From positions 800,001 to 864,000 of the forward strand of contig OZ243972.1 of assembly GCA_965214705.1 (NCBI GenBank): DNA of 64,000 bases, written 5' to 3'. Of the stretch, positions 2,946-59,897 are shown in pieces. The position numbers and the translations under genes are program-made. The stretch is from Alphaproteobacteria bacterium (lineage in GTDB: Bacteria > Pseudomonadota > Alphaproteobacteria > UBA828). The notes under the pieces were generated by a model. It had not been told where the DNA came from, did not search any database, and saw only the letters and a program-made list of their open reading frames with translations. Each line of letters opens with the position of its first letter. Positions within the stretch are counted from its first letter, which is position 1.

Positions 2946-3860
2946 CTAAAGCCCGCTTTCCCCACCGACCGTGTTGTTGGATCCGAACGGCACGCGCCTG
3001 CGAAAGTCCGCAGCCATCTCCGCGTGAGTGACCATCCTGGCACCCTGATGTCTCAGAATATGGTCGGCGAGGCGTTCCAGCGCCAACATGACGTGGGGCT
3101 TCGACGCGGCGTCGGGATGCATCCCTAGTGGGTACACGGCGTAGTCGTGATTGCGGTAAATCCAGTCGAAGAAGTCGATCCAGATTTGGCCGATCTGTTG
3201 ACCCGTGACCCAACCGTGGCTGTTGGGCGCGGTCTTCACGAACATTGTCGGCGGTGCATCGTCCAGGTGCCAGCTGAGGGGAATTTCGACGATGTCGACT
3301 TCCTTCCCCGGCACCCACGGCTTCATCCAGTCCGCGGCATCTCTCGTATAGTCGATCTTCGTCCAGCTATCACCGGTCCTCAGGTAGTACGGAAAGCAGT
3401 CTTCCTCCATCATGCTGTACTCGTGCGAAAAGCCGCGCTCGAGCAGCAAATCCACGGTGATGGAGGAGAATTCGGCCCACGGTGTCGCATAACCCCGTGG
3501 CCTTTCGCCGGTCAACGCCTGGCAAAGCTCGATACTCTTGTCGAGCACATCCCTCTCCTGTTGGGCGCTCATCGCGATCGGGTTCTCGTGTGAATAGCCG
3601 TGGACGCCGATCTCGTGGCCGTCCTTCGCGATCATCTCTGCCGCTTTGGGGAAGCTCTCCATCGAGTGCCCGGTAATGTGCCATGTCGTCGTGATGTTGT
3701 AGCGCCGGAAGAATTCCAGCAGGCGGGGGACTCCACGCTTCGCCGCGAAGACGCCGCGCGAAATATCGCAGGGTGAATCGGCGCCGCCAAACGAGCCGAG
3801 CCAGAGGGACACGGCGTCGAAGTGCGGATTGAAGCAAACCTGGATGTCCTTTTCTGCCAT
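2946..3860 (-). CDS. Polysaccharide deacetylase (CE4), HP0310/PgdA-like, copy 1
   Basis: DAVSLWLGSFGG.DSP.DISRG, HEIGVHGYSHEN, LDDAPP, HPD motifs. Confidence 0.88.
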   Translation of the reverse strand: MAEKDIQVCFNPHFDAVSLWLGSFGGADSPCDISRGVFAAKRGVPRLLEFFRRYNITTTWHITGHSMESFPKAAEMIAKDGHEIGVHGYSHENPIAMSAQQERDVLDKSIELCQALTGERPRGYATPWAEFSSITVDLLLERGFSHEYSMMEEDCFPYYLRTGDSWTKIDYTRDAADWMKPWVPGKEVDIVEIPLSWHLDDAPPTMFVKTAPNSHGWVTGQQIGQIWIDFFDWIYRNHDYAVYPLGMHPDAASKPHVMLALERLADHILRHQGARMVTHAEMAADFRRRVPFGSNNTVGGESGL

Positions 3861-3942
3861 TTTGCTGTCCTCCCGAAGCACTCCGCGGATTGAAACGGCC
3901 GGCCAGCGCCGCGCGGATCACGATTCTGGTGAGGGCTCCGCG

Positions 3943-4857
3943 CTACAGCCCGGCTTCTCCGCCGACCGTGTTGCTTGATCCGAACGGCACGCGCTTGCGA
4001 AAGTCCGCCGCCATCTCCGCGTGGGTGACCATCCTGACGCCCTGATGTCTCAGGATGTGGTCGACCAGCCGCTCCATCGCCAACATGACGTGAGGCTTGG
4101 CCGCGGCGTCGGGATGGAGCGCCAAAGGATAAATCGCGTAGTCGTGGTTGCGGTAAATCCAGTCGAAGTAATCGAGCCAGATCTGGCCGATCTCTTGACC
4201 CGTGATCCAGCCGTGGCTGTTGGGCGCGGTCTTCACGAACATCGTCGGCGGCGCATCGTCCAGATGCCAGCTGAGGGGAATCTCGACGATGTCGACTTCC
4301 TTCCCCGGCACCCAAGGCTTCATCCAGTCGGCAGCATCTCTCGTATAGTCGATCTTGGTCCAGCTATCTCCGGTCCGCAGGTAATACGGAAAACAGTCCT
4401 CCTCCATCATGCTGAACTCGTGCGAAAAGCCGCACTCCAGCAGCAGGTCCACGGTGATGGGGGTGAATTCCGCCCACGGTGTCGCATAGCCCCTTGGCCT
4501 TTCGCCGGTCAGCGCCTGGCAAAGCGCGATGCTCTTTTCGAGAACGTCCCTCTCCTGCTGGGGGCTCATGGCGAGCGGGTTTTCGTGGGAGTAGCCGTGC
4601 ACGCCGATCTCGTGGCCGTCCTTCGCGATCATCTCGGCCGCTTTCGGAAAGCTCTCGATTGAGTGCCCGGTAATGTGCCAAGTCGTTGTGATGCCGTAGC
4701 GCCGGAAGAAATCCAGCAGACGGGGGACACCGCGCTTCGCCGCAAAGACGCCGCGCGAAATGTCGCAGGGCGAATCAGCGCCGCCGAACGAGCCGAGCCA
4801 AAGGGACACCGCATCGAAGTGGGGGTTGAAGCAAACCTGGATGTCTTTTTCTGCCAT
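3943..4857 (-). CDS. Polysaccharide deacetylase (CE4), HP0310/PgdA-like, copy 2
   Basis: Same motifs; 304 aa, about 25 substitutions versus copy 1 by manual count. Confidence 0.88.
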   Translation of the reverse strand: MAEKDIQVCFNPHFDAVSLWLGSFGGADSPCDISRGVFAAKRGVPRLLDFFRRYGITTTWHITGHSIESFPKAAEMIAKDGHEIGVHGYSHENPLAMSPQQERDVLEKSIALCQALTGERPRGYATPWAEFTPITVDLLLECGFSHEFSMMEEDCFPYYLRTGDSWTKIDYTRDAADWMKPWVPGKEVDIVEIPLSWHLDDAPPTMFVKTAPNSHGWITGQEIGQIWLDYFDWIYRNHDYAIYPLALHPDAAAKPHVMLAMERLVDHILRHQGVRMVTHAEMAADFRKRVPFGSSNTVGGEAGL

Positions 4858-10889: not shown

Positions 10890-11900
10890 ATGAGCGACCG
10901 CCCGCAGATCGACCCGCCCTACCTGCTCTTCCTCGGCGACGCGCGCGACGCGCTCGCCGCCAAGACCGCGCGCGGGGTGTTCGTCTTTCGGCCGGAGTGG
11001 TGCCTCGGCCAGCTCAGGCTGCCGGGCTGCAAACCCCGCCTCGATCTGCCCGAGATGACGGTCGAGGAAGCGGCGGCCAAGGGCGCGAAGTGCCTCATCG
11101 TCGGCGTCGCCAATGCGGGCGGCGTGGTCTCAGACAGCTGGACCGCCACCCTCGTGGCGGCACTCGAAGCGGGCCTCGACGTGGCGAGTGGGCTTCATGT
11201 GCGGCTCAGCGACCTACCGGCGGTGCGCGATGCGGCCGAGGCCAACGGCCGGCATCTCTTCGACGTGCGCCATCCGTCCCAGGAGTTCAAGGTGGGCACG
11301 GGCATCCGCAGGGCCGGCAAGCGCCTGCTCACGGTGGGCACCGACGCCTCGGTGGGCAAGATGTACGCCACGCTCGCGCTCGAAGCCGAATGGCGCCGGC
11401 GCGGCGTCCCCTGCACCTTCCGCGCGACCGGGCAGACCGGCATCTTCGTCGCCGGCCGCGGAGTCTCCGTCGATGCGGTGGTGGCCGACTTCATCTCCGG
11501 CGCCACCGAGTGGCTCACCCCCGAGAACGACCCAGATCACTGGGACCTTGTCGAGGGGCAGGGCTCGCTCCACCACCCCTCCTACGCGGGCGTGACGCTC
11601 GGCCTGATCCACGGCGCCCAGCCGGACGCCATCGTGGTCTGCCACGAGCCGACACGGACCAACATGCGGGGCCTGCCGGACTGGCCGCTGCCCGAGCTCG
11701 GCGCCTCCATCGAGGCCAACCTGCAGGCGGCGCGGCTCACCAATCCCGACGTTGTCTGCGCAGGTATCTGCGTCAACACCGAGGCGCTGGCAGAGGCGGA
11801 GGCGGAGGCGTTGCTGGCTGAGTTGGGCACCGCCCACGGCCTGCCCTGCGTCGATCCGATCCGCACCGGCGTGGGCCCGATCGCCGACCGCGTGATCTAG
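10890..11900 (+). CDS. dgcN: DUF1611 family D-glutamate N-acetyltransferase-like protein
   Basis: PYLLFLGD..AAKTA, VGTDASVGKMYATL, RATGQTGI, DAVVADFISGA, EGQGSL. Confidence 0.85.
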   Translation: MSDRPQIDPPYLLFLGDARDALAAKTARGVFVFRPEWCLGQLRLPGCKPRLDLPEMTVEEAAAKGAKCLIVGVANAGGVVSDSWTATLVAALEAGLDVASGLHVRLSDLPAVRDAAEANGRHLFDVRHPSQEFKVGTGIRRAGKRLLTVGTDASVGKMYATLALEAEWRRRGVPCTFRATGQTGIFVAGRGVSVDAVVADFISGATEWLTPENDPDHWDLVEGQGSLHHPSYAGVTLGLIHGAQPDAIVVCHEPTRTNMRGLPDWPLPELGASIEANLQAARLTNPDVVCAGICVNTEALAEAEAEALLAELGTAHGLPCVDPIRTGVGPIADRVI

Positions 11901-11912
11901 GAGCCGACGCCG

Positions 11913-12896
11913 GTGAGCCGGCGCCTCGCCGTTCGCCTCGAATCCTGGCCGCTCGCGAGTGCCTTTCGCATCTCCCGCGGCGCAAAGACCGAGGCCCACG
12001 TCGTCGTTGCCGAGATCGCCGATGGCCCGCACATCGGTCGGGGCGAGGCGGTCCCCTACCCCCGTTACAACGAGACGCCCGAGGGGACGCGCGCCGAGAT
12101 CGAAGGCGTGCGAGACGCCGTGGAAGGCGGTCTCGTCCGCGAAGGTCTGCTGGAGATGCTGCCGCCGGGCGCTGCCCGCAATGCGCTGGACTGCGCGCTC
12201 TGGGACCTGGAGGCGAAGCAGGCGGGCCGCCCGGCCTGGGCGCTGGCGGGCCTGGAGGCGCCGCAGCCGTGCATCACCGCCGTGACGCTCAGCCTCGATA
12301 CGCCGGAGAAGATGGGCGCGGCCGCCGCCCGCCACGCCACGCTCCCTCTGCTCAAGCTCAAGGTCACCGGCGAAGGCGACCTCGCGCGCATCGAGGCGGT
12401 CCGTGCGAACGCGCCCGGTGCCCGGCTGATCGTGGACGCGAACGAGGGCTGGACCGTGCCGATGCTGGAGGAATATTTGCCGGCCTTTGCCGACCTCGGG
12501 GTCGAGATGGTGGAGCAGCCGCTGCCCGCGGCGGACGATGCCGCGCTCGAAGGACGGCAGTTCGCGATCCCGCTCTGCGCCGACGAGAGCTGCCACACGC
12601 GCGAAGACCTAACGCGGCTCGCCGGCCGCTACCCGATGGTCAACGTCAAGCTGGACAAGACCGGGGGGCTTACCGAGGCGCTAGCGCTCGCGATGGAGGC
12701 GCGGACCATGGGGTTCGACATCATGGTGGGCAGCATGGTCGGCACCTCGCTCGGCATGGCGCCGGCGGCGCTGCTCGCCGGCTTCGCCGACTACGTTGAT
12801 CTCGACGGCCCGCTGCTGCTCGCCCGCGACCGCTCGCCGGGACTGAGCTACGACGGCGCGGTCATGGCGCCGCCTGAGCCTGCACTCTGGGGGTAG
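11913..12896 (+). CDS. dgcA: N-acetyl-D-Glu racemase / L-Ala-D/L-Glu epimerase (enolase superfamily)
   Basis: FRISRGAKT, KLK, DANEGW, EQP, DES, NVKLDKTGG, DLDG; adjacent to dgcN. Confidence 0.85.
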   Translation: MSRRLAVRLESWPLASAFRISRGAKTEAHVVVAEIADGPHIGRGEAVPYPRYNETPEGTRAEIEGVRDAVEGGLVREGLLEMLPPGAARNALDCALWDLEAKQAGRPAWALAGLEAPQPCITAVTLSLDTPEKMGAAAARHATLPLLKLKVTGEGDLARIEAVRANAPGARLIVDANEGWTVPMLEEYLPAFADLGVEMVEQPLPAADDAALEGRQFAIPLCADESCHTREDLTRLAGRYPMVNVKLDKTGGLTEALALAMEARTMGFDIMVGSMVGTSLGMAPAALLAGFADYVDLDGPLLLARDRSPGLSYDGAVMAPPEPALWG

Positions 12897-12983: not shown

Positions 12984-13211
12984 ATGCCGCGCGTGAGCGC
13001 GAAGCGTCAGATTACGCTCCCCATCGATCAGTGCAGAGAAGTCGGGATCGGGCCGGGGGACGAATACCGCAGCTATGTTGCCGGTGGCCGCATCACCATC
13101 GTGCGGAAGACCGCTGGTGCCGCCAAGGGTTTCTTGCGCCATGTAGCCGGCGATCCCGCCGTCAGCGACGAGGAATCCCTGCAGGACGCGCTTGACGAGC
13201 CAAAGTCTTGA
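12984..13211 (+). CDS. AbrB/MazE/SpoVT-family antitoxin
   Basis: VSAKRQITLP...GIGPGD swapped-hairpin motif; overlaps the toxin start. Confidence 0.85.
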   Translation: MPRVSAKRQITLPIDQCREVGIGPGDEYRSYVAGGRITIVRKTAGAAKGFLRHVAGDPAVSDEESLQDALDEPKS

Positions 13212-13642
13212 TCGCCGTCGACACCAATGTCTTGCTTCGCTATCTGCTGCACGACGATGAGGCCCAGGCGGCGCGGGCGAACGCTGTTTTCGATGCTGCC
13301 GAAACCGTTCTGATCACGGACGTCGTACTTGCGGAAACCGTGTGGACGCTCTCCGGCCGCAAGTATCGGCTGGCCAAGGCCGAGCTGGCGGCGGTCCTCG
13401 AACGGCTGTTCAGCGAGCCGAATATCCGTTTCGAGGACGATCAGGTGGTTTGGCGCGCCTTGCAGGCGTACAAGAGCGCCGCGCCAGTGGACGAGGCCGG
13501 GTCGGGGAAGGGCGCCGGCTTCGTTGATGCGTTGATCGTGTTCAAGGCGCTGCGCACCGCATCGGGCTCCGGCGAGACGTTGAACGGCGTCTACACTTTC
13601 GACGCGGCCATGGGGCAGCTACCGCACACTGTATCGCTCTAG
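13208..13642 (+). CDS. vapC: PIN-domain toxin (VapC family)
   Basis: IAVDTNVLLRY, LAETVW, FVDALI, YTFD acidic residues. Confidence 0.88.
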   Translation: MIAVDTNVLLRYLLHDDEAQAARANAVFDAAETVLITDVVLAETVWTLSGRKYRLAKAELAAVLERLFSEPNIRFEDDQVVWRALQAYKSAAPVDEAGSGKGAGFVDALIVFKALRTASGSGETLNGVYTFDAAMGQLPHTVSL

Positions 13643-13752: not shown

Positions 13753-14406
13753 ATGGGCCGCCTGTTGGACCTCGGGGAGCGGGTGGAGCTCGTCTCCATG
13801 GACCCGCACTTCCATGACATCAGCATCTCCCTCTACCGCGAGACCGGGGAAGGCGGCGCCTCGGGCTATCTCGCGCACAGCTACAGCGGGAAGGAAGGCA
13901 CTACCGAGCGGTTGGCGTTCGTGATGCGGGCGATGGCTGTGATGGGCGGCATGGTGCCGGCGCCGGGCCAGCCGGGGCGCCTCGCTTTCGCGTGCGGCGA
14001 AGAACACCGGGCGGCGGTGAAGCGGCTTTTCCTCGAAGCCTGCAAGAAGGCGCCGGATTCCGAGGTCGCGGCACTGCCCATGAGCATCTACGACAAGAAG
14101 AACGACTTCACCATCGACGCCACAGCCACAGGCAGCGGGGGCTACCGGCTTGCTGTCGCAGGCGGTGAGGGCGATGACAAAGTGGCGCGGCGCGTGGACG
14201 GCGTGACCAGGGGGCTGATCAAGCTCGCCGAGATGGAGCCCGGCGCCGAGCTGGGCGAGGCCCGCTTCGCCTGCGGCACGACCCACGACGAGCTGGTGGG
14301 CCTCCTGCTCGGCCGGGCGCTCAACGTCCGCGCCGCCATGCGCGAGGCGGAGGCTGCGGCGGCGCGGGGCGTCCTCGCCGCGCCGAGCGCACAACAACAG
14401 ACCTGA
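13753..14406 (+). CDS. Hypothetical protein, first gene of the corrinoid methyltransferase operon
   Basis: GAGGAGG RBS, native codon usage, two FACGxxH motifs; no family recognised. Confidence 0.75.
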   Translation: MGRLLDLGERVELVSMDPHFHDISISLYRETGEGGASGYLAHSYSGKEGTTERLAFVMRAMAVMGGMVPAPGQPGRLAFACGEEHRAAVKRLFLEACKKAPDSEVAALPMSIYDKKNDFTIDATATGSGGYRLAVAGGEGDDKVARRVDGVTRGLIKLAEMEPGAELGEARFACGTTHDELVGLLLGRALNVRAAMREAEAAAARGVLAAPSAQQQT

Positions 14407-14424
14407 GGGTCGGGAGCGGAAGCG

Positions 14425-15468
14425 ATGACGGCAGTACCCTCGATGACCAGCCGCGAGCGGGTGCTCGCGGCGCTGAAACGCAAGCCGGTGGATCGCACGC
14501 CCGTGTGCAACCCCACCTCGGTCGCGACAGTGGAGCTGATGGACCTGGTGGACGCGAACTTTCCGTTCGCGAACCGCGACCCGGAGCTGATGGCGCGGCT
14601 CGCCGCCACCAGTTACACCGAGCTCGGCTTCGACAGCATCATGCCGGTCTTCTCGATCATCCAGGAATCGTCTGCGCTTGGCTGCAAGATGCAGTGGGAG
14701 CAGAAGGACAACTGGCCAACCGTGCGCATGCGCGAGCCGATCTGGGAGGACGTCGACGACATCCGCATTCCCAACGACTTCCTCCTGCACCCGGACATGG
14801 CGTGCGTAATCGAGGGGATCCGCATGCTGCGCCGCGAGTTCGGCGACGAGGTCGCGATCATCGGCAAGACCATGGGGCCGTGGACCCTCGGCTATCACTG
14901 CTTCGGGGTGGAGCCCTTCCTGCTCATGTCGCTCGACGATCCGGGCAAGACCAAGCTCGCGCTCGACCGCATGAAGGAGGCGACGATCGTCTTCGGGCTG
15001 GCACAGATCGAAGCAGGCGCGGATGCGCTCACCGTCCCCGATCACGCCACCGGCGATCTGGTGAGCGCCGACTACTACAAGCGCTTCCTCAGGGACCTTC
15101 ACATCGAGTTCGTGGAGCGCCTTCCGGTGCCGCTTATCCTCCACATCTGCGGGCGCACCGTGGACCGCATGGGCTATATCGCAGAGACCGGGATCGCCGC
15201 CTTCCACTTCGATTCCAAGAACGCACCGTCCGAGTCCATGGCGGCGATGGACGACAGAGTGTCGCTGGTCGGCAACATCAACAACCCCGAGACGCTGTTC
15301 GCCAAGGGGCCGGAGGACGTGCGCAAAGAGGTCTACGCCAATCTCGACGCCGGCGTGCAGGGGGTCGGGCCGGAATGCGCCATCCCGCTCCAGACCTCGG
15401 TCGAGAACCTGCGCGAGATTCCGCTGGCGGTGCGCGACTGGCATGCCGAGCATGGCAGCCCGCTCTAA
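14425..15468 (+). CDS. MtaA/CmuA-family corrinoid methyltransferase (URO-D fold)
   Basis: MTSRERVLAAL....VDRTPV, GPWTL, ILHICG zinc motif, LVGNINN, GPECAIP. Confidence 0.88.
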   Translation: MTAVPSMTSRERVLAALKRKPVDRTPVCNPTSVATVELMDLVDANFPFANRDPELMARLAATSYTELGFDSIMPVFSIIQESSALGCKMQWEQKDNWPTVRMREPIWEDVDDIRIPNDFLLHPDMACVIEGIRMLRREFGDEVAIIGKTMGPWTLGYHCFGVEPFLLMSLDDPGKTKLALDRMKEATIVFGLAQIEAGADALTVPDHATGDLVSADYYKRFLRDLHIEFVERLPVPLILHICGRTVDRMGYIAETGIAAFHFDSKNAPSESMAAMDDRVSLVGNINNPETLFAKGPEDVRKEVYANLDAGVQGVGPECAIPLQTSVENLREIPLAVRDWHAEHGSPL

Positions 15469-15508
15469 GGCCTTGTGACACCCTGTCCGTTTTACCACTG
15501 AGTCCCCG

Positions 15509-16258
15509 ATGGCCGAGCTTGCCGACATCGCCAACGCGGTGATCCGCGACGAGATCGAGGAGTTTCTCGAGCGCCCGGACGAGATCGAGCGCAACGTCGC
15601 GCTGTTCGCGCGCGTGCGGCCCGAGATGCAGGACATCGCTGCCGCGTTGATCGAGGGCGACAATCACACGGTGGACGCGCTCACCGCCAAGGCCCTGGAG
15701 GAGGGCACCGAGGCGCTGGAGATCATGGACGATGGTTTGATCGCCGGCATGGGGATCGTCGGCATCAAGTTCCGCGAGAATTTCATCTTTGTGCCCGAGG
15801 TGCTGGCGTGCGCGCGTGCGATGAAGGCGGGCATGGCCCATATCGAGCCGATCCTGTCGGCCTCGGGCGTCGAGCCCATCGGCACCGTGATCATGGGCAC
15901 GGTCAAGGGCGACCTCCACGACATTGGCAAGAACCTCTGCATCATGATGCTTTCCGGCGCGGGCTTCGACGTGGTCGACCTTGGCGTGGACACGTCGGAA
16001 GACGAGTTTATTGCCGCGCTCGAGGAACACGGGGCGCCGATCATGGGCATGTCCGCGCTGCTCACGACGACGATGCCGAACATGGGCAAGACCATCGAGG
16101 CGCTGATCGACGCCGACATTCGCGACGACGTGATGGTAATGGTGGGGGGCGCGCCGGTGACCCAGGAGTTCGCCGACGACATGGGCGCCGACGGCTATGG
16201 CAAGGACGCGCTCTCCTGCGTGGCGCTCGCCAAGAAGCTGATGGAAGAGCGCGGTTAG
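15509..16258 (+). CDS. Corrinoid (B12-binding) methyl-carrier protein, MttC/MtbC-like
   Basis: FIFVPEVL cap domain, GTVKGDLHDIGKN (DxHxxG), MSALLTTTM, MVGGAPVT. Confidence 0.93.
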   Translation: MAELADIANAVIRDEIEEFLERPDEIERNVALFARVRPEMQDIAAALIEGDNHTVDALTAKALEEGTEALEIMDDGLIAGMGIVGIKFRENFIFVPEVLACARAMKAGMAHIEPILSASGVEPIGTVIMGTVKGDLHDIGKNLCIMMLSGAGFDVVDLGVDTSEDEFIAALEEHGAPIMGMSALLTTTMPNMGKTIEALIDADIRDDVMVMVGGAPVTQEFADDMGADGYGKDALSCVALAKKLMEERG

Positions 16259-16266
16259 GCCGGCCG

Positions 16267-18261
16267 TTGCCGAAGATCAGCCAAGAGGACTATCAGCAGC
16301 GACTGGATCGGCTCACCGAGATCTTTGCGGATATCGTGAGCCATGCCGACGAGCAGGCGACGCACCGCTGCCCCTACCGCGACGCCCGCGACCGCTGCAC
16401 GGCGGCCTTCTCGTGCGGCAACCAGATTCCCGCCGTCGAGAAGGGCGCGCCTGCAACCTGTGGCCACGACGGCACCTTCGACTACAGCCTGGCGTGGGAA
16501 ACGGATCCGGCCACCCGTGAGCGCGCGAAGACGAAGCTCGGCGCGATCAAGCAGGCCGCCGCCGCGCGGCGGGAGGGCGCGGCACCGCCGACGGGGCCGG
16601 GCACCGTCTCCCACGACGGCAAGACTCAGCCGCTCGCCATAGGCATGACGCTCTTCGACTGCGCCGACGAGCTTGCCGTCGAGGTACCCACATCGTGCCA
16701 GCGCAACGGCCGCTGCCACGAATGCGTGGTCGAGGTGAGCGCGGGCGAGGCCGCCCTCTGCGCCCGCACCGAGGCAGAGGGATTTCTGCGTGCGCCCTAT
16801 CGCCTCGCCTGCCAGGCGATGATTGAGCGCGACGACATCGACGTGGCGTTCGCGCCGCTCCGCCGCCGACCGCGCATCCTGGTGCGCGCCCATGCCGACG
16901 CGGCCGGCGCGTCCGAGACCATCGATCCTCTCGTCACGCGGCGGGGCGACGAGGTGCTCTACGACGGCGAGGTGGTGGACCGCTACCGGGGACAGATGCT
17001 CGGGCTCGCGGTCGATCTCGGCACCACCACGGTGGTGCTCGACTTCGTCGACTTGGAGACCGGGCGGAGCGTGCACAGCGCTGCCTTCGAGAACCCGCAG
17101 GCCTTCGGCGGCAGCGACGTGATGCACCGCATCTCCTACGACCGCGACGACAAGGCCGGCGAGCTGCAGAAGGCCGCAGCGTCGGCCATCAACCGCGCCA
17201 TCGTTGACGGCTGCGCTAGGCTCGGCACCAACCGCCAGGCGATCTACGAGATCGTGATCGCCGCCAACTCCACCATGCGCGACATCCTGTTCAAGCTGGA
17301 CGTCCAGGGGATCGGCCAGAAACCCTACAAGTCCTCCATCGAGCACGCCTTCCTGGCCGGCGAGCGCGCGAACACGGCACTCAGCGCCCGCGCGCTGCGG
17401 CTTGGACTGCGCGCCAACCGCGCGGCCCGCGTCTATGGGCTGCCGTTGATCGCCAGCCATGTGGGAGGTGATGCGGCCGCCGCCTTGGTGGCGCTGGAAG
17501 AAGGCTTCGCCGACGCCGATACCGCGATGCTGGTGGACATGGGCACCAACACCGAGGTCGTGCTCAAGCACCGGGGGCGGATGCTCGCCGCCTCGTGCCC
17601 GGCGGGGCCGGCGTTCGAGGGCGGTCTGGTGCGCTACGGCATGCCGGCCTGCGACGGTGCGATCGAAGCGGTCCGCCTCGGCGCCACCGGCGAGGCCAGC
17701 TACGAGACCATCGGCGGCAAGGAACCGCTGGGCCTCTGCGGCTCTGGTTTGATCGATTTGCTGGCGGAACTTCGGCGGAGTGACGTGCTCACCGCCAAGG
17801 GCGTCTTCACCGCGGACCGCAAGCAGAGGGAGATGACCGTGGTGCCCGAGCAGGGGATCACCTTCTCCAAGGAGGACGCCAGCAATCTTGGTCAGGCCAA
17901 GGCCGCCAACTACTGCGGTCAGTACATCGTCATGCGCGCGCTCGGCGCCGATCCCGCAGACATCGAGAGCCTCTACCTAGCAGGTGGCTTCGCCAACTAC
18001 GTGAACGTGCGCAACGCCCAGTTCATCGGCCTGCTGGCGCCGGTGCCGGAGGAACGCGTCGTCAAGGCCGGCAACGCGGCGGCGCGGGGCGCCCGGGCGA
18101 TCCTGCTCTCGGCCACCCGGCGGCACGCGCTGGAGCGCGAGGTCCAGGCCATCGAGCATATCGAGCTGGAGACCACGCCCGATTTCTTCGACCTCTTCGT
18201 GGACGGCTGCCAGTTCAAGCCGATGCCAACGCACCTCGTGCCGGAAGGAACCGCCGCATGA
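16267..18261 (+). CDS. ASKHA-type reductive activator of corrinoid proteins (RACo/DUF4445) with a 2Fe-2S domain and a Cys-rich N-terminal extension
   Basis: CQRNGRCHEC..RLACQA, AVDLGTTT, NPQAFGGSDVMHRI, DMGTNTE, CPAGPAFEG, GLCGSG; probable TTG start at 16267. Confidence 0.88.
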   Translation: MPKISQEDYQQRLDRLTEIFADIVSHADEQATHRCPYRDARDRCTAAFSCGNQIPAVEKGAPATCGHDGTFDYSLAWETDPATRERAKTKLGAIKQAAAARREGAAPPTGPGTVSHDGKTQPLAIGMTLFDCADELAVEVPTSCQRNGRCHECVVEVSAGEAALCARTEAEGFLRAPYRLACQAMIERDDIDVAFAPLRRRPRILVRAHADAAGASETIDPLVTRRGDEVLYDGEVVDRYRGQMLGLAVDLGTTTVVLDFVDLETGRSVHSAAFENPQAFGGSDVMHRISYDRDDKAGELQKAAASAINRAIVDGCARLGTNRQAIYEIVIAANSTMRDILFKLDVQGIGQKPYKSSIEHAFLAGERANTALSARALRLGLRANRAARVYGLPLIASHVGGDAAAALVALEEGFADADTAMLVDMGTNTEVVLKHRGRMLAASCPAGPAFEGGLVRYGMPACDGAIEAVRLGATGEASYETIGGKEPLGLCGSGLIDLLAELRRSDVLTAKGVFTADRKQREMTVVPEQGITFSKEDASNLGQAKAANYCGQYIVMRALGADPADIESLYLAGGFANYVNVRNAQFIGLLAPVPEERVVKAGNAAARGARAILLSATRRHALEREVQAIEHIELETTPDFFDLFVDGCQFKPMPTHLVPEGTAA

Positions 18262-19286
18262 CCACCCCGCTGCTCATCGTCATCGGCGAGAACATCCATT
18301 GCACCCGCGTCGCGCTCCGCAAGGGCAAGCGCATCGCCGAACGCGACGGTGCCGAGGTGATCCTCTACGAGAGTGCCGAGGGCGAAGAACGCGCGCTGCC
18401 GGTCACGGCGGAGGCGAAGCGGACCAAGGACTACGAAGAGGGGCGGGTCAAGCACGTTCAGGTCGCGATCGAGACCGCGATGGAGACGGCGGCAGGTGAT
18501 CCGGCCGAGGGCCTGCGCTATATCGAGGCGCAGGTCCGCCATCAGGAGCGCGCGGGCGCGGCCTTCCTCGACCTCAACGTCGACGAGATCGCGCCCAAGC
18601 TCAGCGTGCAGACCGGCGCCATGGCCTGGCTTGCCGAGACAGTCCAGGGGATGACCGACCTCCCGATTTCCGTCGATTCCTCCAGCGTCGACGTGATCCG
18701 CGCTGGCCTCGAGGCCATCGCGCCGGCAAAGGTGCGCCCGATGCTCAACTCCGCCTCGCTGGAGCGGTTGGACGCGCTCGACCTCGCCCGCGAGCACGAC
18801 TGCCGCGTGGTGGTGACCGCCGCCGGCGAGAAGGGGATGCCGGATGGTGCGGACGAGCGGGTGGCGAACGCGTCCCGCATGGTCGAGGCGGCCCTGGGGC
18901 GGGGCTTCGCCGTCGGCGATCTCTACATCGACCCGCTGGTCTTCCCGATCTCGGTTGACTCCCGCTTCGGCAACCACTGCTTTGACGCGATCCGCGCCCT
19001 GCGCGCGCGCTTCGGCGGCGAGGTCCACATCACCGGCGGCATGAGCAACGTCTCGTTCGGGTTGCCGGCCCGCAAGATCCTCAACGATATGTTCGTCCTG
19101 CTCGCAATGGAGGCCGGCGCCGACAGCGGCATCCTCGACCCGGTGGCGAGCCCGCCAGAGGCGATCCTCGCCATCGACCGCACGGACCCCAACTACAAGC
19201 TCGCCGAGGACGTGTTGATGGGACGGGACGAGCACTGCATGGAATATATCCGCGCCTGGCGGAAGAGCAGGCGCAAGGCCAAGTGA
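18258..19286 (+). CDS. Methyltetrahydrofolate:corrinoid methyltransferase (AcsE/MetH pterin-binding, DHPS fold)
   Basis: IVIGENIH, FLDLNV, ISVDSS, LNSAS, IDPLVFPIS, GGMSNVSFGLPAR. Confidence 0.87.
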   Translation: MTTPLLIVIGENIHCTRVALRKGKRIAERDGAEVILYESAEGEERALPVTAEAKRTKDYEEGRVKHVQVAIETAMETAAGDPAEGLRYIEAQVRHQERAGAAFLDLNVDEIAPKLSVQTGAMAWLAETVQGMTDLPISVDSSSVDVIRAGLEAIAPAKVRPMLNSASLERLDALDLAREHDCRVVVTAAGEKGMPDGADERVANASRMVEAALGRGFAVGDLYIDPLVFPISVDSRFGNHCFDAIRALRARFGGEVHITGGMSNVSFGLPARKILNDMFVLLAMEAGADSGILDPVASPPEAILAIDRTDPNYKLAEDVLMGRDEHCMEYIRAWRKSRRKAK

Positions 19287-19299: not shown

Positions 19300-19701
19300 A
19301 TGACCGAGACCGAGCGGCCGCCGCAAATCGAGCCCGCGCTTCGCACGCTGGCCATGCCCGCCGACGCCAACCCCAACGGCGACATCTTCGGCGGCTGGGT
19401 GCTGGCGCAGATGGACCTCGCCGGCGGCGTCGTGGCGGCGCGGCGCGCCGGCGGGCGCATGGTCACGGTGGCGGTGGAGGCCATGCGCTTCCACGCGCCC
19501 ATCGCCGTCGGCGACCTCGTGACCTGCTACGCCCGGGTGACGAAGACCGGAACGACCTCGATCACCGTCGACATCGAGACCTGGGCGCGCCGGCGACGCG
19601 GCACCGAGGAGGTGAGAGTGACCGAGGGCACCTTCATCTATGTCGCCATCGACGACAACGGCCGTCCCCGCCCTCTGCCCGAAGAACCGCCGGAGCAGTG
19701 A
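19300..19701 (+). CDS. Acyl-CoA thioesterase (hotdog fold, YciA-like)
   Basis: AMPADANPNGDIFGGWVLAQMDLAG. Confidence 0.92.
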   Translation: MTETERPPQIEPALRTLAMPADANPNGDIFGGWVLAQMDLAGGVVAARRAGGRMVTVAVEAMRFHAPIAVGDLVTCYARVTKTGTTSITVDIETWARRRRGTEEVRVTEGTFIYVAIDDNGRPRPLPEEPPEQ

Positions 19702-34719: not shown

Positions 34720-34925
34720 GTGCGGGGGGTTCCTCCTGTTGCCGCGGCACCTAGTGGGCGCCTACTTTTACCCGAAAAGGCGCAGCGGTTCACAGGGGCA
34801 AAATGGTGGCCACGACCGGCCCTCGTCCGTGCCTGCGCCTTGCGGCCGGCGGCCCCCGCCGTCTACCCTTGCGCGAAGGACACATGACCAAGGACGGGCA
34901 CCTGGGAGAGTGGGAGCCCAGCCGC

Positions 34926-37070
34926 ATGACTGACTCCATCGAAAAGACCGTCGCCGACTGGGAAGCCTTGGCTGCGGCTGAGCTCAAGGGCAGAGACCCG
35001 GAAGAGCTCGCCTGGGAGACGCCCGAGGGCATCACGGTCAAGCCGCTCTACACCGCGGCCGACCTGGAGGCGCTGGAGGACCAGCCGGGTTTGCCGGGCT
35101 TCGCCCCCTACACGCGGGGCGTGCGCGCCACCATGTTCGCCAACCGGCCGTGGACCATTCGTCAATATGCGGGCTTCGCCACCGCCGAGGAGTCCAACGC
35201 CTTCTACAAGCGCAACCTCGCGGCCGGGCAGAAGGGGCTCTCCGTCGCCTTCGATCTCGCAACCCACCGGGGCTACGACAGCGACCATCCCAGGGTGCGC
35301 GGCGACGTGGGCAAGGCGGGCGTCGCCATCGACACCGTGGAGGACATGAAGCGCCTCTTCGACGGCATTCCCCTGGGCGATGTCAGCGTCTCCATGACCA
35401 TGAACGGGGCGGTGTTGCCGGTGCTGGCGGCCTACATCGTCGCGGCGGAGGAGCAGGGGGTCGGCGCGGGTAAGCTCGCCGGGACCATCCAGAACGATAT
35501 CCTCAAGGAGTTCATGGTCCGCAACACCTACATCTATCCGCCCGAGCCCAGCATGCGCATCGTGGCCGACATCATCGCGTACACGGCCGGGCACATGCCG
35601 CGCTTCAACTCGATCTCGATCTCCGGCTACCACATGCAGGAGGCCGGCGCGACGCTGGTGCAGGAGCTCGGTTTCACGCTGGCCGACGGCCTCGACTACG
35701 TGCGCGCCGCGCTCTCGCGCGGCCTCGCCATCGACGACTTCGCGCCTCGGCTGTCGTTCTTCTTCTGCATCGGCATGAACTTCTTCATGGAGGTCGCCAA
35801 GCTGCGGGCCGCGAGGCTGCTTTGGGCGCGCTACATGCAAGGCTTCGGGGCTGAGAACCCGCGCTCGCTCATGCTGAGGACCCATTGCCAGACCTCGGGC
35901 GTCTCGCTCGCCGAGCAGGATCCGTACAACAACGTGGTTCGCACGGCCTACGAGGCGCTGGCGGCGGTGCTCGGCGGCACCCAGTCGCTCCACACCAACG
36001 CACTCGACGAGGCGGTGGCGCTGCCGACCGATTTCTCGGCCCGGATCGCGCGCAACACCCAGCTTATCCTGCAGCACGAGACCGGCGTGCCCCGCGTCGT
36101 GGACCCGTTGGGAGGCTCCTACTACGTGGAGGCGCTTACCGTCTCGCTCGCGCGCGAGGCGCAGGCACTGATTGACGAGGTCGAGGAGCTGGGCGGCATG
36201 ACCAAGGCGGTGGCCGCCGGCATGCCCAAGCTCCGCATCGAGGAGGCCGCCGCCCGCCGGCAGGCGCGGCTCGACCGGGCCGAGGACGTGGTCGTCGGCG
36301 TCAACCGCTACCAATCGGAGGCGGACGACATGCCGGCGCTGCTCGATGTGGACAACGTCGCGGTGCGGGAGGCCCAGATCGCGCGGATTAATGACGTCCG
36401 CGCCGCACGGGACGAGGCGGCTTGCCAGGCGACGCTTGACAAGCTCACCGAGGGCGCGCGCGGCGACGGCAACCTGCTGGCGCTCTCCGTGGACGCGATC
36501 CGGGCGCGCGCCACGGTCGGCGAGGTCTCGGATGCGATGGAGGCGGCGTTCACGCGCCACCGCGCGACCGTGCGCACGGTCTCCGGCGTCTACGGCGCGG
36601 CCTATGCGCAGGACGACGCTTTCCAGACCATCCGGCGTGAGACCGCGCTCTTCGCCGAGGCCGAGGGGCGCCGGCCGCGCATCCTGGTGGTGAAACTCGG
36701 ACAGGACGGGCACGACCGCGGCGCCAAGGTGATCGCGACGGCCTTCGCCGACATCGGCTTCGATGTGGATATCGGCCCGCTGTTCCAGACGCCCGAAGAG
36801 GCCGCCCGCGATGCGCTGGAGAACGACGTGCATGTCGTAGGCGTCTCCAGCCAGGCCGCCGGCCACAAGACCCTGGTGCCGGAGCTGATCGAGGCGCTGC
36901 GGGAAGCCGGCGCGGGCCACGTGGTGGTGGTCTGCGGCGGGGTGATTCCGCCGCAGGACCATGACTTCCTGCACGAGGCCGGGGCTGCGGCCGTCTACGG
37001 CCCCGGCACCAACATCCCGGCCGCCGCGCAGGACATCATGGCGCTGATCCGCCGGCCCGAGGCCGCCTGA
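34926..37070 (+). CDS. scpA: Methylmalonyl-CoA mutase
   Basis: [38 protein letters not shown]12 motif. Confidence 0.95.
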
Positions 37071-37177
37071 CGCGCGCCGGCATTTGATCCTCTCCCGCTT
37101 CGTGCTTATGTGACACGCGCACCTAACGCGCTCTGAGCCCCGCAAGCGGCGGGGCCAACGATCAGACTCACGACCCC

Positions 37178-39070
37178 ATGGTTGCTCTCGATCGCGAGGC
37201 CCGCGTGCGGGAAGCGGGAGAACACTCGCACCTGCACACCATTCGCACGCTGCTGCCCTATCTCTGGCCGCGTGGCTCGCTGGAGATGCGGGGCCGCGTG
37301 GTGCTGGCCGTGATCCTCCTCGTCGGCGCGAAGGTCGCGAACGTGTACGTGCCGATCCTCTACAAGGATGCGGTCGATATCCTCTCGGGCGAAACGGCGG
37401 CGGTCATCGTCGTGCCGGTGGCGATCCTGCTGGCCTACGGCGCGCTCCGGGTGCTCACCGTCGCCTTCGGCGAGCTCAGGGATGCGGTCTTCGCCAAGGT
37501 CGGCGAGCGGGCGATCCGCACCGTGGCACTTCAGGTCTTCAACCATCTCCACGAGCTTTCGCTCCGCTTCCATATCGAGCGCCGCACCGGCGGCCTGAGC
37601 CGCGCCATCGAGCGCGGCGTCAAGGGGATCGAGTTCCTGCTCACCTTCATGCTGTTCAACATCCTGCCGACCCTGGTGGAGGTCACCATGGTCTGCGGCA
37701 TCCTCTGGGTCCTCTACGGCGTCACGTACGCTGCGATAACCTTCGTCACCATCGGTTCCTTTATCGCCTTCACCCTCACGGTCACCGAGTGGCGGCTGAA
37801 GTACCGCCGGCGCATGAACGAGAAGGACAGCGAGGCCAACACCAAGGCGATCGACAGCCTGCTCAACTACGAGACGGTCAAGTATTTCGGCAACGAGATG
37901 CACGAGGCGCAGCGCTTCGACATCTCCCGCCGGCAGTACGAACGGGCGGCGGTGCAGAGCAAGACCAGCCTCTCGCTGCTCAACATCGGCCAGGGGATCA
38001 TCGTCGCGACCGGGCTCACCGGCATCACCATCATGGCCGGCTACGAGGTCGCCGCCGGCACCATGACCATCGGCGACTTCGTGCTGGTCAACACATACCT
38101 GCTCCAGCTCTACATCCCCTTGAATTTCCTGGGCTTCGTCTATCGTGAGATCAAGCAGTCGCTCACTGACATGGAGTCGATGTTCGGCATCCTCTCTGTG
38201 GAGCGCGAGATCGAGGACGCGCCGGACGCGCCGCCGCTCCAAGTCACGGCGGGCACCATCGAGTTCGAGGACGTGCGCTTCCGCTACGAGGAGCGGCGCG
38301 GCATCCTCGACGGCATCACCTTCCGCGTACCGCCCGGCACCACCACGGCCATCGTCGGCGCGAGCGGGGCCGGCAAGTCGACCATCTCGCGCATCCTCTT
38401 CCGCTTCTACGACATCGAGGGCGGCAGCGTCAGGATCGACGGGCAGGACGTGCGCGAGGTGAGCCAGGAGAGCCTTCGCGCCGCCATCGGCATCGTTCCG
38501 CAGGACACGGTGCTCTTCAACGACACGATCTACTACAACATCGCCTACGGCAGGCCCGAGGCAAGCCCGGAAGAGGTGGAGGAGGCGGCGCGGCTCGCTC
38601 ACATCCACGACTTCATCGCCGCGTTGCCCGACGGCTACGAGAGCATGGTCGGTGAGCGCGGCCTCAAGCTCTCGGGTGGTGAGAAGCAGCGGGTGGCGAT
38701 TGCGCGCACGATCCTCAAGAATCCCCGTATTCTGCTGTTCGACGAGGCCACCTCGGCGCTCGATTCGCAGACCGAGAAGGAGATTCAGGCGAGTCTGCGG
38801 GAGGTCAGCCGCGACCGCTCGACGCTCATGATCGCGCACCGCCTTTCCACGGTCATCGACGCCGACCAGATCCTTGTGCTGGACGGCGGGCGCATCGTCG
38901 AGCGCGGGCGCCACGCCGAGTTGCTGGTGCGGGACGGCCACTACGCCGAGATGTGGTGGCGCCAGCAGGAGACTGCGGAGCTCAGGGAGGAGCTTGAGCA
39001 ACGGCTCGCTGACGAGGAAGGCCGCGCCGCGGAGACGACGGCAGTGCCCGAGGAGACCCCGGCGCCATGA
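37178..39070 (+). CDS. Atm1/ABCB7-type ABC exporter (permease + NBD)
   Basis: LSLRFHIERRTGG, DSLLNYETVKYF, GASGAGKST, GERGLKLSGGEKQR. Confidence 0.92.
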   Translation: MVALDREARVREAGEHSHLHTIRTLLPYLWPRGSLEMRGRVVLAVILLVGAKVANVYVPILYKDAVDILSGETAAVIVVPVAILLAYGALRVLTVAFGELRDAVFAKVGERAIRTVALQVFNHLHELSLRFHIERRTGGLSRAIERGVKGIEFLLTFMLFNILPTLVEVTMVCGILWVLYGVTYAAITFVTIGSFIAFTLTVTEWRLKYRRRMNEKDSEANTKAIDSLLNYETVKYFGNEMHEAQRFDISRRQYERAAVQSKTSLSLLNIGQGIIVATGLTGITIMAGYEVAAGTMTIGDFVLVNTYLLQLYIPLNFLGFVYREIKQSLTDMESMFGILSVEREIEDAPDAPPLQVTAGTIEFEDVRFRYEERRGILDGITFRVPPGTTTAIVGASGAGKSTISRILFRFYDIEGGSVRIDGQDVREVSQESLRAAIGIVPQDTVLFNDTIYYNIAYGRPEASPEEVEEAARLAHIHDFIAALPDGYESMVGERGLKLSGGEKQRVAIARTILKNPRILLFDEATSALDSQTEKEIQASLREVSRDRSTLMIAHRLSTVIDADQILVLDGGRIVERGRHAELLVRDGHYAEMWWRQQETAELREELEQRLADEEGRAAETTAVPEETPAP

Positions 39071-40065
39071 CCGCGCGCCCGCACGGCCCCGGCCAGGTTC
39101 CGCCGGTGGCGGACATCCTCGCCGGCGACCGGCGAGCGCTGGCGACAGCGATCACGCTCATCGAATCCACGCGGGAGGAAGACCGCGCGGCGGCCGAGGA
39201 CCTGCTCCAGGCGCTGCTGCCGCACGCCGGCACGGCCGTCCGCCTCGGCATCTCGGGCGCGCCAGGGGTCGGCAAGTCGACCTTCATCGAGGCCTTCGGC
39301 ACGCGCGCCATCGCGGCCGGCCGCAGGATCGCGGTGCTCGCGATCGACCCTTCCAGCGAGCGATCGGGCGGCTCGATCCTGGGGGACAAGACCCGGATGC
39401 CGGAGCTCGCGCGGAACGACCAATGCTTCGTCCGTGCCTCGCCGACGGGCGGCACCCTCGGCGGCGTCGCCCGGCGCACGCGCGATGTCATGCTGGCCTG
39501 CGAGGCGGCGGGCTTCGACCTCGTGATGGTGGAGACCGTGGGCGTCGGCCAGTCCGAAGCCGCCGTCGCCGACATGACGGACCTCTACATGCTGCTGGTG
39601 CAGCCCGGTGCCGGCGACGAGCTGCAGGGCATCAAGCGCGGCGTAATGGAGCGCGCCGACATCGTCGTCGTCACCAAGGCCGACGGCGCCCTCGAAGGGC
39701 CCGCCGCCCACGCCAAGGCGGACTTCGAGGCGGCGCTCATGCTCCACGCGGGCGGAGGGCCGTGGACGCCCCGCGTCATCGCCTGCTCGTCGGTCGAGGG
39801 TACGGGCCTCGACGAGATCGCCGACGCGGTCGAGCGGCATCGGACGGTGATGGCGAAGGACGGCGCGCTGGAGGCCAAGCGGGCCGCGCAGGCGGGTGCG
39901 TGGCTCTGGCGCGAGGTCGAGGACTCTCTCGTGGCAGCGCTCCACGCCGACGAGCGACTGGCGCCCGCCGTCGCGGCGCTGGAGGCGGACGTGGCGGCGC
40001 AGACGCTCACCCCCGGCGCTGCCGCCCGCCGCATCGTCCAGCGCCTCCTGGAGCGCGACGCGTAG
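39067..40065 (+). CDS. meaB: Methylmalonyl-CoA mutase-associated GTPase
   Basis: GISGAPGVGKST, DPSS..SGGSILGDKTRM, ETVGVGQSE, GDELQGIKRG. Confidence 0.95.
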   Translation: MTARPHGPGQVPPVADILAGDRRALATAITLIESTREEDRAAAEDLLQALLPHAGTAVRLGISGAPGVGKSTFIEAFGTRAIAAGRRIAVLAIDPSSERSGGSILGDKTRMPELARNDQCFVRASPTGGTLGGVARRTRDVMLACEAAGFDLVMVETVGVGQSEAAVADMTDLYMLLVQPGAGDELQGIKRGVMERADIVVVTKADGALEGPAAHAKADFEAALMLHAGGGPWTPRVIACSSVEGTGLDEIADAVERHRTVMAKDGALEAKRAAQAGAWLWREVEDSLVAALHADERLAPAVAALEADVAAQTLTPGAAARRIVQRLLERDA

Positions 40066-43129: not shown

Positions 43130-43264
43130 ATGAGAACGCGGTACACCCCTTCAATCCGACTGCTGCCGCTCGGCGCCGGCCCGCGGCTGCTCGGGGCGGC
43201 CCTGATCGTTGCCGCGCTCTGGGGCGCGTTCTTCTGGGCGACGTCCACGCCGGGGGGGCCGTGA
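43130..43264 (+). CDS. Small (44 aa) single-TM protein preceding the Zn ABC ATPase
   Basis: MRTRYTPSIRLLPLGAGPRLLGAALIVAALWGAFFWATSTPGGP*; GGGGAG RBS; GTGA overlap with the next gene; below the ORF-track cutoff. Confidence 0.65.
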   Translation: MRTRYTPSIRLLPLGAGPRLLGAALIVAALWGAFFWATSTPGGP

Positions 43265-44004
43265 CCTACGCCCTCAAGTTTCAGGACCTGAGCCTCGGCT
43301 ACGACCGGCATCCGGCCGTGCATCGCCTGCACGGCGAGATCGCCGAGGGCAGCCTGACGGCCATCGTCGGACCCAACGGGGCCGGTAAATCCACGGTGCT
43401 GAAGGGGGTGACCGGCTCACTCCGCCCGCTCGAAGGACGGATCGCCTTCGGCGGGGTCGCGCGGGACGACATCGCCTACCTGCCGCAGCAATCGGACGTC
43501 GACCGGTCTTTCCCGATCGTAGTCTCCGACCTCGTGGCGATGGGCCTCTGGCGGGAGATCGGCGGCTTTGCGGGCTTGCGGGCCAGTCACCGCTCACGCG
43601 TCGCCGACGCAATTTCCGCGGTCGGCCTCGAAGGGTTCGAGAAGCGGCCGATCGGGTCGCTGTCGGGCGGGCAGTTACAGCGTGCGCTGTTTGCCCGCCT
43701 GCTGCTGCAGGACGCACGGCTCGTCCTGCTTGACGAGCCCTTCACGGCAATCGACGCGAGAACGGTGGCGGACCTGATCGGCGTGGTGCGGCGCTGGCAC
43801 GGCGAAGGCCGCACGGTGCTCGCCGTCTTGCACGACGTGGACACGGTACGGGCTCACTTCCCCCGCACGCTGATGCTGGCGCGCGAACTCGTCGCCCACG
43901 GACCCACGGCGCGGGTGCTGACGGCCGAGAACCAGTTCCGCGCGCGCCAGATGTGCGAGGCCTGCGTCGGCCCGCCGCATACTTGCGGGCGAAGCGCTGC
44001 ATGA
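43261..44004 (+). CDS. Zn/Mn ABC transporter ATP-binding protein (AztA/ZnuC-like)
   Basis: GPNGAGKST, YLPQ, LSGGQLQR, LDEPF, VLHD. Confidence 0.92.
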   Translation: MTYALKFQDLSLGYDRHPAVHRLHGEIAEGSLTAIVGPNGAGKSTVLKGVTGSLRPLEGRIAFGGVARDDIAYLPQQSDVDRSFPIVVSDLVAMGLWREIGGFAGLRASHRSRVADAISAVGLEGFEKRPIGSLSGGQLQRALFARLLLQDARLVLLDEPFTAIDARTVADLIGVVRRWHGEGRTVLAVLHDVDTVRAHFPRTLMLARELVAHGPTARVLTAENQFRARQMCEACVGPPHTCGRSAA

Positions 44005-44870: not shown

Positions 44871-44881
44871 AAGGAGTATCA

Positions 44882-45964: not shown

Positions 45965-46141
45965 GGTTTGGCGCACAGCCTTCGAAAGCCGGGACGCCGG
46001 ACTTCCAGGGACGAGAGGGACAGGTCGGCACACCACGCATGAGGTCGTGTCCCGAACAGCGCTTTCAGCCAGCATCTACGAACGGAGTAGAGGCCGCTGG
46101 GTGCGACTGAACGACTTCAAAGATTGAAGGAGACGGAATCC

Positions 46142-48150: not shown

Positions 48151-48184
48151 GCGCGAACAGAGGAACTCCAATCGAGGTTCTTCC

Positions 48185-48394
48185 ATGAAACGGAGGGCAA
48201 AACGCGCGCAATCCCCATGCATCGACGTCTGCCGACTCGACCCGAAGACGGGGTGGTGCCTGGGCTGTGGCAGGACCGCCGCCGAGATCGGAGAATGGCG
48301 CAAGCTCACACCGTTCCGCCGAGGCCGGCTTGAACGGGAATTCGCGCGGCGCCTGGTGAAGCTCGGACAGCGCACGCCATTGGAACACGAATGA
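48185..48394 (+). CDS. DUF1289 family small Cys-rich protein
   Basis: SPCIDVCRLD....WCLGCGRT..EI..W. Confidence 0.85.
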   Translation: MKRRAKRAQSPCIDVCRLDPKTGWCLGCGRTAAEIGEWRKLTPFRRGRLEREFARRLVKLGQRTPLEHE

Positions 48395-48509
48395 AACGGT
48401 TGGCGATCACTATTCACGATCCATGAACCCAGTTTCTGGCGGTTTTTGTGTGCGAGGCGTACCCCGGAGATAGCGATCTCAGAAGTGCCGATTTGGGTCG
48501 GGCTCGTTG

Positions 48510-48701: not shown

Positions 48702-48722
48702 AGCCAGCAAGCCCGCATCGGC

Positions 48723-51081: not shown

Positions 51082-51153
51082 GGCAATTCTTCAGAGCGTG
51101 ATTGCGACGTCGGGGGCGCTGGGTGCGAGCGCCGCCTGGCTCGTTGGAGACCC

Positions 51154-59831: not shown

Positions 59832-59897
59832 TTAGAAAAAGGCACTAGTCTAGAGCCAGCAAAACCGGTGTGAAGCAGGAAGGTATAGACCCTGCTC

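Follow-up and report, generated by a model that had tools for sequence, protein, structure and literature searches.

An alphaproteobacterial operon that pairs an undescribed protein with an MtaA/CmuA-family zinc enzyme as a possible methylsulfur entry module of a corrinoid methyl hub

The window analysed here, a 64 kb stretch (64,000 nucleotides) of contig OZ243972.1 from an Alphaproteobacteria bacterium that was also the extent of our coverage of this genome, carries on its plus strand an intact operon for corrinoid-dependent methyl transfer. Between positions 13753 and 19286 lie five co-oriented and tightly spaced open reading frames (ORFs), separated by 18, 40, 8 and -4 bp, and the catalytic motifs of the methyl-transfer genes are undamaged. 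A sixth co-oriented gene, for a YciA-like thioesterase, follows 13 bp past the AcsE-like gene. The features of the locus are as follows.

13753-14406, plus strand: ORF1, 217 aa, undescribed family (no Pfam match above cut-off, no NCBIfam match)
14425-15468, plus strand: MtaA/CmuA-family UroD-fold zinc corrinoid methyltransferase with His240-Cys242-Cys318 (URO-D E 3e-64; TIGR01463)
15509-16258, plus strand: corrinoid-binding methyl carrier (Pfam B12-binding and B12-binding_2; DxHxxG)
16267-16572, plus strand: four-cysteine domain with invariant Cys35/44/50/65, fused here to the activator (no family)
16267-18261, plus strand, likely TTG start: RACo/RamA-type ATP-dependent corrinoid reductive activator (Pfam Fer2, RACo middle and RACo C-terminal domains)
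18258-19286, plus strand: AcsE/MeTr-like methylcorrinoid:tetrahydrofolate methyltransferase (Pterin_bind E 2e-21)
19300-19701, plus strand: YciA-like acyl-CoA thioesterase (4HBT; PRK10694 151 bits against a cut-off of 162)

A first-pass annotation of this DNA had described the five coupled genes, and we find them where it placed them, on the same strand and with agreeing family assignments; what it overlooked were the thioesterase, the four-cysteine domain of the activator and an N-terminal extension of the carrier. To place the operon among its relatives we used the best 80 of at least 513 GTDB loci found by scanning with a zinc-enzyme alignment, each with up to 10 kb of flanking DNA on either side. 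The thioesterase gene occurs in just 4 of these 80 loci, all close kin of the window, and is probably accessory. The earlier statement that the operon has no further substrate-side methyltransferase (MT1) holds for the 53 translated regions of the window (13 + 40, picked from the output of a simple caller) that were scanned against Pfam, none of which matched MttB, MtaB or another substrate-side methyltransferase family; moreover, a PF06253 (MttB-family) enzyme was found neither in these 53 regions nor among the neighbours shared across lineages. An Rfam scan gave no match in the window and tRNAs only, in 7 of the 80 loci, with no riboswitch seen, and no sigma-70 promoter or terminator signals rose above those of shuffled sequences.

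By its score the zinc enzyme is a member of TIGR01463 (MtaA/CmuA; 247.4 bits, cut-off 235.4), and it falls under the equivalog cut-offs for both MtaA (222.9 versus 400) and MtbA (188.5 versus 600). Its closest solved structure is Methanosarcina mazei MtaA (PDB 4ay7, E 5e-52), whose His-x-Cys...Cys residues, which we take to be its zinc ligands, align with His240, Cys242 and Cys318, and both ligand motifs are kept in 199 of 200 relatives. It is the one UroD-fold enzyme in the window, and each of the 80 loci gave a single tblastn match to it. The N-terminal region closely matches that of MtaA in the alignment with 4ay7 and, judged by eye from supplement sequences, is nearer to MtaA than to CmuA or MecE. 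This bears on the suggestion of the first-pass annotation that the operon resembles a split CmuA, which would dehalogenate methyl chloride, bromide or iodide and pass the methyl group to folate. TIGR01463 does include CmuA and MecE, both of which share the ligand motif by eye, and halide donors are strongly downhill. However, the best solved relative is a methanogen MtaA, the N-terminal match to CmuA and MecE is poor (by eye only), and a search for a fused enzyme-carrier form came back empty, a weak argument considering that it began at 635 residues and CmuA has about 617 aa. The mec-type sensor kinase, transporter and MtrH-like gene are likewise absent among the cross-lineage neighbours, and both the FadR-type regulator described below and retention of the system in many Poribacteria would fit a gaseous halide poorly, so that we regard a split CmuA as very unlikely.

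The remaining components of the operon are recognisable members of corrinoid methyl-transfer families. A conserved stretch of about 37 residues extends the carrier at its N-terminus, and its best PDB match (1y80, E 6e-60) aligns from residue 38; its median identity in distant loci is 80%, and it scores below the cut-offs of the MtgC models (201 versus 370 and 177 versus 310). Carrier and activator genes are co-oriented and no more than 2 kb apart, and the activator, with its Fer2 and ASKHA domains, has 3zyy as its best PDB match (E 2e-64). The AcsE-like enzyme scores 203 bits on PRK07535, below the cut-off of 259, and best matches PDB entries 4o0q, 4o1e and 4o1f (E 1e-31), with the DPL and SNxS stretches aligned; close to its N-terminus it carries some 60 inserted residues. 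The four-cysteine domain gave no match in Pfam, among PDB sequences or with Foldseek (model predicted template-modelling score 0.38). In the 36 loci where it occurs it is fused to the activator in 17, forms a separate ORF in 16 and stands without an adjacent activator in 3. Since it is retained in two loci whose clusters have no activator gene (L008, 5041-5367, and L066, 11857-12156), we suggest a separate role for it.

ORF1 has 740 homologues (228 representatives at 50% clustering), and no Pfam family was matched by more than one of 42 members. It consists of two tandem alpha/beta repeats (hhalign probability 97%, E 6.5e-11), each bearing an F-x-C-x-x-x-H motif (Cys81/His85 and Cys174/His178), and these four residues are conserved at 94-98% in 130 sequences; Arg and Asp residues and the C-terminal tail are conserved too. 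The structure model has a pLDDT of 91.9, and with it Foldseek returned nothing at E 0.001 and a fold comparison (VIA, best Z 6.6, rmsd (root-mean-square deviation) 3.1, 91 aligned) gave nothing that stands out, a missing fold match that is not equal to a new fold. The protein Atlas held no usable match to ORF1, and a plasmid collection held no ORF1 relative, no close relative of the zinc enzyme and no CmuA. In genomic context, an analysis outside of which the distant ORF1 relatives (25-36% identity) lie, ORF1 is found upstream of the MtaA-like enzyme in 79 of the 80 loci, with just 90 bases of upstream sequence in the 80th, and because a corrinoid gene follows in only 38 of the 80, it is ORF1 and the MtaA-like enzyme that form the fixed unit. 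The gap between the two is 600-970 bp in 9 loci, and a RuvC-like gene cluster is present in 9 Poribacteria loci, in one of which (L022, 9337-9852) it separates ORF1 from the zinc enzyme. A predicted complex of the two proteins scored 0.01, which gives no verdict and is not used as evidence here. Such a constant partner, with two conserved Cys/His motifs and conserved Arg and Asp residues, might be a new kind of MT1, leaving the MtaA-like enzyme in its classical role as acceptor-side methyltransferase (MT2) that methylates a thiol carrier. However, ORF1 is the least conserved gene of the cluster in distant loci (median identity 47% versus 80%), and its model shows two small alpha/beta repeats and no TIM barrel, where known corrinoid methyltransferases are barrels. 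We consider this reading highly improbable, and our guess is that ORF1 is a metal-binding accessory subunit.

The first-pass annotation had taken the route to be proteobacterial, a restriction that the distribution of the enzyme does not bear out. It is encoded at no fewer than 513 GTDB loci, and the best 80, at 78-98% enzyme identity, comprise 48 from Poribacteria, 18 from Pseudomonadota, 4 each from Acidobacteriota and Gemmatimonadota, 3 from Latescibacterota, 2 from Lentisphaerota and 1 further record; because they span six phyla, the cluster is not specifically proteobacterial. The nearest locus is in an alphaproteobacterial metagenome-assembled genome (98% identity), and in a quick tree most phyla group together, a pattern that fits a long inheritance of the enzyme and is no proof of it.

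How the methyl group would leave the carrier differs between these lineages. We refer to the 38 loci in which a corrinoid gene follows the enzyme as corrinoid loci, and to the 25 of these with full 10 kb flanks as fully flanked. Among the latter, the folate enzyme is the sole exit enzyme in 15 and a homocysteine methyltransferase is the sole one in 6; 3 loci encode the two together and 1 has neither. A PF02574 homocysteine enzyme is present in 11 of the 38 corrinoid loci, in one case truncated by the end of the locus, and all nine that were aligned retain the Cys and CysCys motifs. Stand-alone pterin, cobalamin and homocysteine modules occur together in 4 of the 38, and the window has no homocysteine module. 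This partly touches what the first-pass annotation had said would speak against its proposal, namely a grouping with a characterised split methionine synthase, inasmuch as the clusters of other phyla carry split methionine synthase modules. Accessory genes of the 38 loci include methylenetetrahydrofolate reductase (MTHFR) in 9, formate-tetrahydrofolate ligase in 1, and a small PF13769 protein; a protein of 530-550 aa, present in L033 (15083-16693) and eight further loci, fuses MTHFR to the MTHFR C-terminal domain, which we take to be MetV-like. Such accessory genes match the one-carbon genes that surround mtgBCD (PMC12478193). A donor-side role is supported by the fact that the exit enzyme changes from locus to locus, whereas ORF1, the zinc enzyme, the carrier and the activator are kept. 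Moreover, the homocysteine-only loci (6/25) show, within their 10 kb horizon, no candidate donor enzyme other than the MtaA-fold enzyme, which for this reason most probably works on the substrate side, in agreement with the earlier proposal.

The same distribution can be read in two other ways. In the first, the pathway would run in reverse, with methyl-tetrahydrofolate methylating sulfide or a thiol through the corrinoid protein to give methanethiol or a methylthioether, either for detoxification or in methionine synthesis. This direction is thermodynamically favoured and is easier to reconcile with folate-only loci such as the window, as well as with the alphaproteobacterial corrinoid loci, of which 17 of 17 have the folate enzyme and none (0/17) the homocysteine enzyme; in addition, ClMlp2 is described as methylating selenide and, more slowly, sulfide (PMC10418091). 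However, the 6 homocysteine-only loci have no folate enzyme, so that their clusters would hold an acceptor and no donor, and FadR-type control suggests induction by a substrate; we judge the reverse direction unlikely. In the second reading the MtaA-like enzyme would be a non-orthologous homocysteine module, making the window a new split methionine synthase. On paper the folate enzyme, carrier, activator and a His-Cys-Cys thiol methylase are complete for this purpose, an identity of about 80% between phyla and a tree whose groups mostly correspond to phyla would suit a housekeeping function, and UroD-superfamily methionine synthases are described (PMC10418091). Against it, 11 of the 38 corrinoid loci already encode a PF02574 homocysteine enzyme, the zinc enzyme has no MetE-type match in Pfam or NCBIfam, and on the best MtgC model the carrier scores 201 (cut-off 370), and we hold a new methionine synthase to be distinctly unlikely.

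Gene neighbours and zinc ligands give some indication of the substrate on which a donor-side enzyme would act. A divergent FadR-type regulator is encoded in 12 of the 80 loci, and 11 of these 12, but none of 67 others, have an operator-like palindrome no more than 350 bp from ORF1; in the window no such palindrome is present upstream of ORF1. FadR-type regulators sense small organic acids. Only two non-core enzymes are common to at least 3 of 22 hand-defined lineages. One, a 2-hydroxyacid dehydrogenase, is represented by three orthologues of 60-63% identity that sit immediately next to the cluster. The other is an acyl-CoA ligase, encoded divergently from ORF1 in three loci and close by in one more, with a methylmercaptopropionate (MMPA)-CoA ligase, PRK07008, as its best NCBIfam model. 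Together the regulator, dehydrogenase and ligase suggest that the substrate is a small organic acid. As for the atom from which the methyl group is taken, His-Cys-Cys is described as the ligand set of sulfur and selenium methyltransferases, unlike O-demethylases (Kountz and Balskus, PMC10418091), and the text of bioRxiv 548461 describes MtpA as an MT2-family protein that works as an MMPA-specific MT1. The similarity of the zinc enzyme to MtaA of methanogens likewise points to a methylthio compound. The same ligand set and family would also suit salvage of methyl-selenium compounds, as proposed for type 1 mlp clusters (PMC10418091); considering that there is a single Mlp, that a folate methylase is present and that no selenium gene was found among the cross-lineage neighbours, we think this extremely improbable.

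Taken as a whole, these observations indicate that the probable function of the cluster is methyl transfer with a sulfur compound on one side and folate or methionine on the other. We give a probability of roughly 0.45 to the reading that the methylsulfur compound stands on the donor side, with ORF1 and the zinc enzyme as the substrate module of a modular corrinoid methyl hub. Several observations weigh against it. The ligand motif is no proof of a sulfur donor because CmuA and MecE, which are halide enzymes, show the same His-x-Cys...Cys in supplement sequences inspected by eye, which weakens its use as a sulfur diagnostic. Identification of the neighbouring ligase as DmdB was similarly weakened: the three ligases scanned score 610-639 bits against a PRK07008 cut-off of 822, comparison gives 486 bits with DmdB and 552 bits with a Thermus long-chain ligase, to which the ligase is thus nearer, and its MMPA-binding residues are also present in the Thermus enzyme and so are not diagnostic. 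The ligase is encoded near just 4 of 18 alphaproteobacterial loci and is not in the window, and no methylsulfur-specific enzyme was found among the cross-lineage neighbours within the 10 kb flanks, beyond which partner genes may exist. In 36 of the 72 loci with at least 1.2 kb of downstream sequence, all from two groups of Poribacteria, the corrinoid gene is missing, and in these orphan ORF1-enzyme loci the carrier may sit elsewhere or be absent. Moving the methyl group of a thioether to folate is uphill overall, by about +30 kJ/mol, and because of this forward demethylation would need a strong pull. For MMPA, the step to cob(I)alamin is given as about +20 kJ/mol (bioRxiv 548461). On the other hand, and to the disadvantage of the halide reading of the motif, the zinc-free CdmB shows that halide transfer does not require His-Cys-Cys ligands (PMC13222342).

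If the donor is indeed a methylsulfur compound, gene content, motifs and linkage as observed would fit the following sequence of events. Going by what is known of its family, the RACo protein would use ATP to reduce the carrier cobalt to Co(I). The zinc enzyme would then bind the sulfur of the methylated compound and transfer the methyl group to Co(I); both the direction and the donor class are uncertain, the likeliest donor being a small carboxylate with a methylthio group, for example MMPA, or else the methanethiol formed from it. The exit steps are again those expected from the enzyme families: in the window, and in the 17 alphaproteobacterial corrinoid loci, the AcsE-like enzyme would pass the methyl group to tetrahydrofolate and thereby into one-carbon units, and in other phyla the stand-alone PF02574 enzyme would pass it to homocysteine, giving methionine. 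A more specific proposal, which we regard as doubtful at present, is that ORF1 and the MtaA-like protein form a two-subunit B12-dependent enzyme that demethylates MMPA or a similar methylthio acid, feeds methyl groups derived from dimethylsulfoniopropionate or methionine into folate and methionine and frees a thiol such as 3-mercaptopropionate; this would be a bacterial counterpart of archaeal MtpA, in hundreds of uncultured species, and would make ORF1 and the four-cysteine domain new parts of corrinoid systems.

Several other features of the window were noted. Directly upstream of the operon, and conserved in close relatives only, is a dgcN-dgcA pair for D-glutamate utilisation (10890-12896, both above NCBIfam cut-offs), and between dgcA and ORF1 lie a small antitoxin-like ORF, without a Pfam match and presumably AbrB-like, and a VapC/PIN gene (12984-13642); locus L001 is without this pair and has the flanks joined directly. 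A methylmalonyl-CoA mutase with MeaB (34803-40065) points to another use of B12 by the host, and a locus resembling those for zinc limitation (43261-52300) combines ABC metal transporter genes, two CobW-type GTPases, a WD40 protein, hisI and folE. At 54358-55389 is a methyltransferase with a sterol methyltransferase C-terminal domain, adjoining a GPP34-cytochrome P450 fusion (55808-57676); bacterial sterol methyltransferases occur in sponge symbionts. Two near-identical polysaccharide deacetylase-family genes stand in tandem at 2946-4857, and transposase-like genes at 40583-42538, 52348-53787 and 57770-62463, with a gene for a pPIWI-associating nuclease domain at 60312-60806.

Were the methylsulfur donor correct, the cluster would mark a sink of methylated sulfur, B12-dependent and so far unrecognised, in Poribacteria, Alphaproteobacteria and four other phyla. 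It would also be a candidate for the demethylation of MMPA to mercaptopropionate by bacteria, a conversion observed in cultures for which no gene is known, which our literature search neither confirmed nor contradicted. The database name 'methanol corrinoid:coenzyme M methyltransferase' would then mislead when attached to such proteins. Whatever the donor, concrete context is gained for two undescribed protein families.

Comparison with known systems places the operon among several partial counterparts. M. mazei MtaA (PDB 4ay7/4ay8) is alike in sequence (about 32% identity by eye over 338 residues, with His-Cys-Cys aligned) and differs in being an acceptor-side coenzyme M methylase. CmuA differs from the window in being fused to its carrier (about 617 aa), where the window has separate ORFs, and CmuB is MtrH-like, as is MecF of the mec cassette, whereas the acceptor of the window is AcsE-type. 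The combination of a UroD-fold MT1, a corrinoid protein and a folate MT2 is shared with CdmBCA, CmuAB and the mec cassette (PMC13222342; bioRxiv 2021.08.30.458270), none of which is described there with an ORF1. This architecture is already known from the Cdm and O-demethylase systems (PMC13222342), a point against the reading of the first-pass annotation. CdmB is described as zinc-free and O-demethylase-like (PMC13222342), and the mec gene set (MecE, MecC, MecB, the MtrH-like MecF and sensor genes) is not reproduced, the cluster having just one UroD-fold enzyme and, among its conserved neighbours, no sensor gene. MtpA/MtpC and MtsA/MtsB of Methanosarcina are alike by description, each an MT2-family zinc enzyme acting as methylsulfur MT1 with a cognate corrinoid protein, and differ in being archaeal and in having coenzyme M as final acceptor (bioRxiv 10.1101/548461). 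Type 1 mlp clusters, also bacterial, have an MtaA-like enzyme with His-Cys-Cys and also a corrinoid protein, together with a Ram/RACE activator, and are defined by at least two Mlps and no folate methylase within 20 kb, and they occur in obligate anaerobes (PMC10418091); the window has the co-oriented carrier and activator within 2 kb, but one Mlp and an AcsE-like gene inside the operon, and a keyword search of the supplements of that paper found no mention of Poribacteria or Alphaproteobacteria. As for the cluster itself, the word 'undescribed' in the first-pass annotation still applies in that we found no account in full-text literature, weak evidence of novelty with most subscription journals outside coverage. 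The closest parallel in organisation is the MtgBCDE hub of Ruegeria pomeroyi, with the split methionine synthase of Phaeobacter (PMC12478193), described as a carrier with folate and homocysteine methyltransferases, a RamA-type activator, MetF and a separate substrate enzyme. There, genetic work in Ruegeria shows one carrier serving the substrate enzyme, a reversible folate enzyme and the homocysteine enzyme (PMC12478193). By comparison, the substrate enzyme here is UroD-fold rather than MttB-family and takes the place of MtgB, the carrier lies below MtgC cut-offs, the homocysteine module is lacking from the window, and ORF1 and the four-cysteine domain are added. The cluster thus has a layout like that of MtgBCDE or Cdm, though it belongs to neither system, with MtgB replaced and two undescribed components present, and it widens the idea, drawn from MtgBCDE, of a common corrinoid hub with exchangeable input enzymes.

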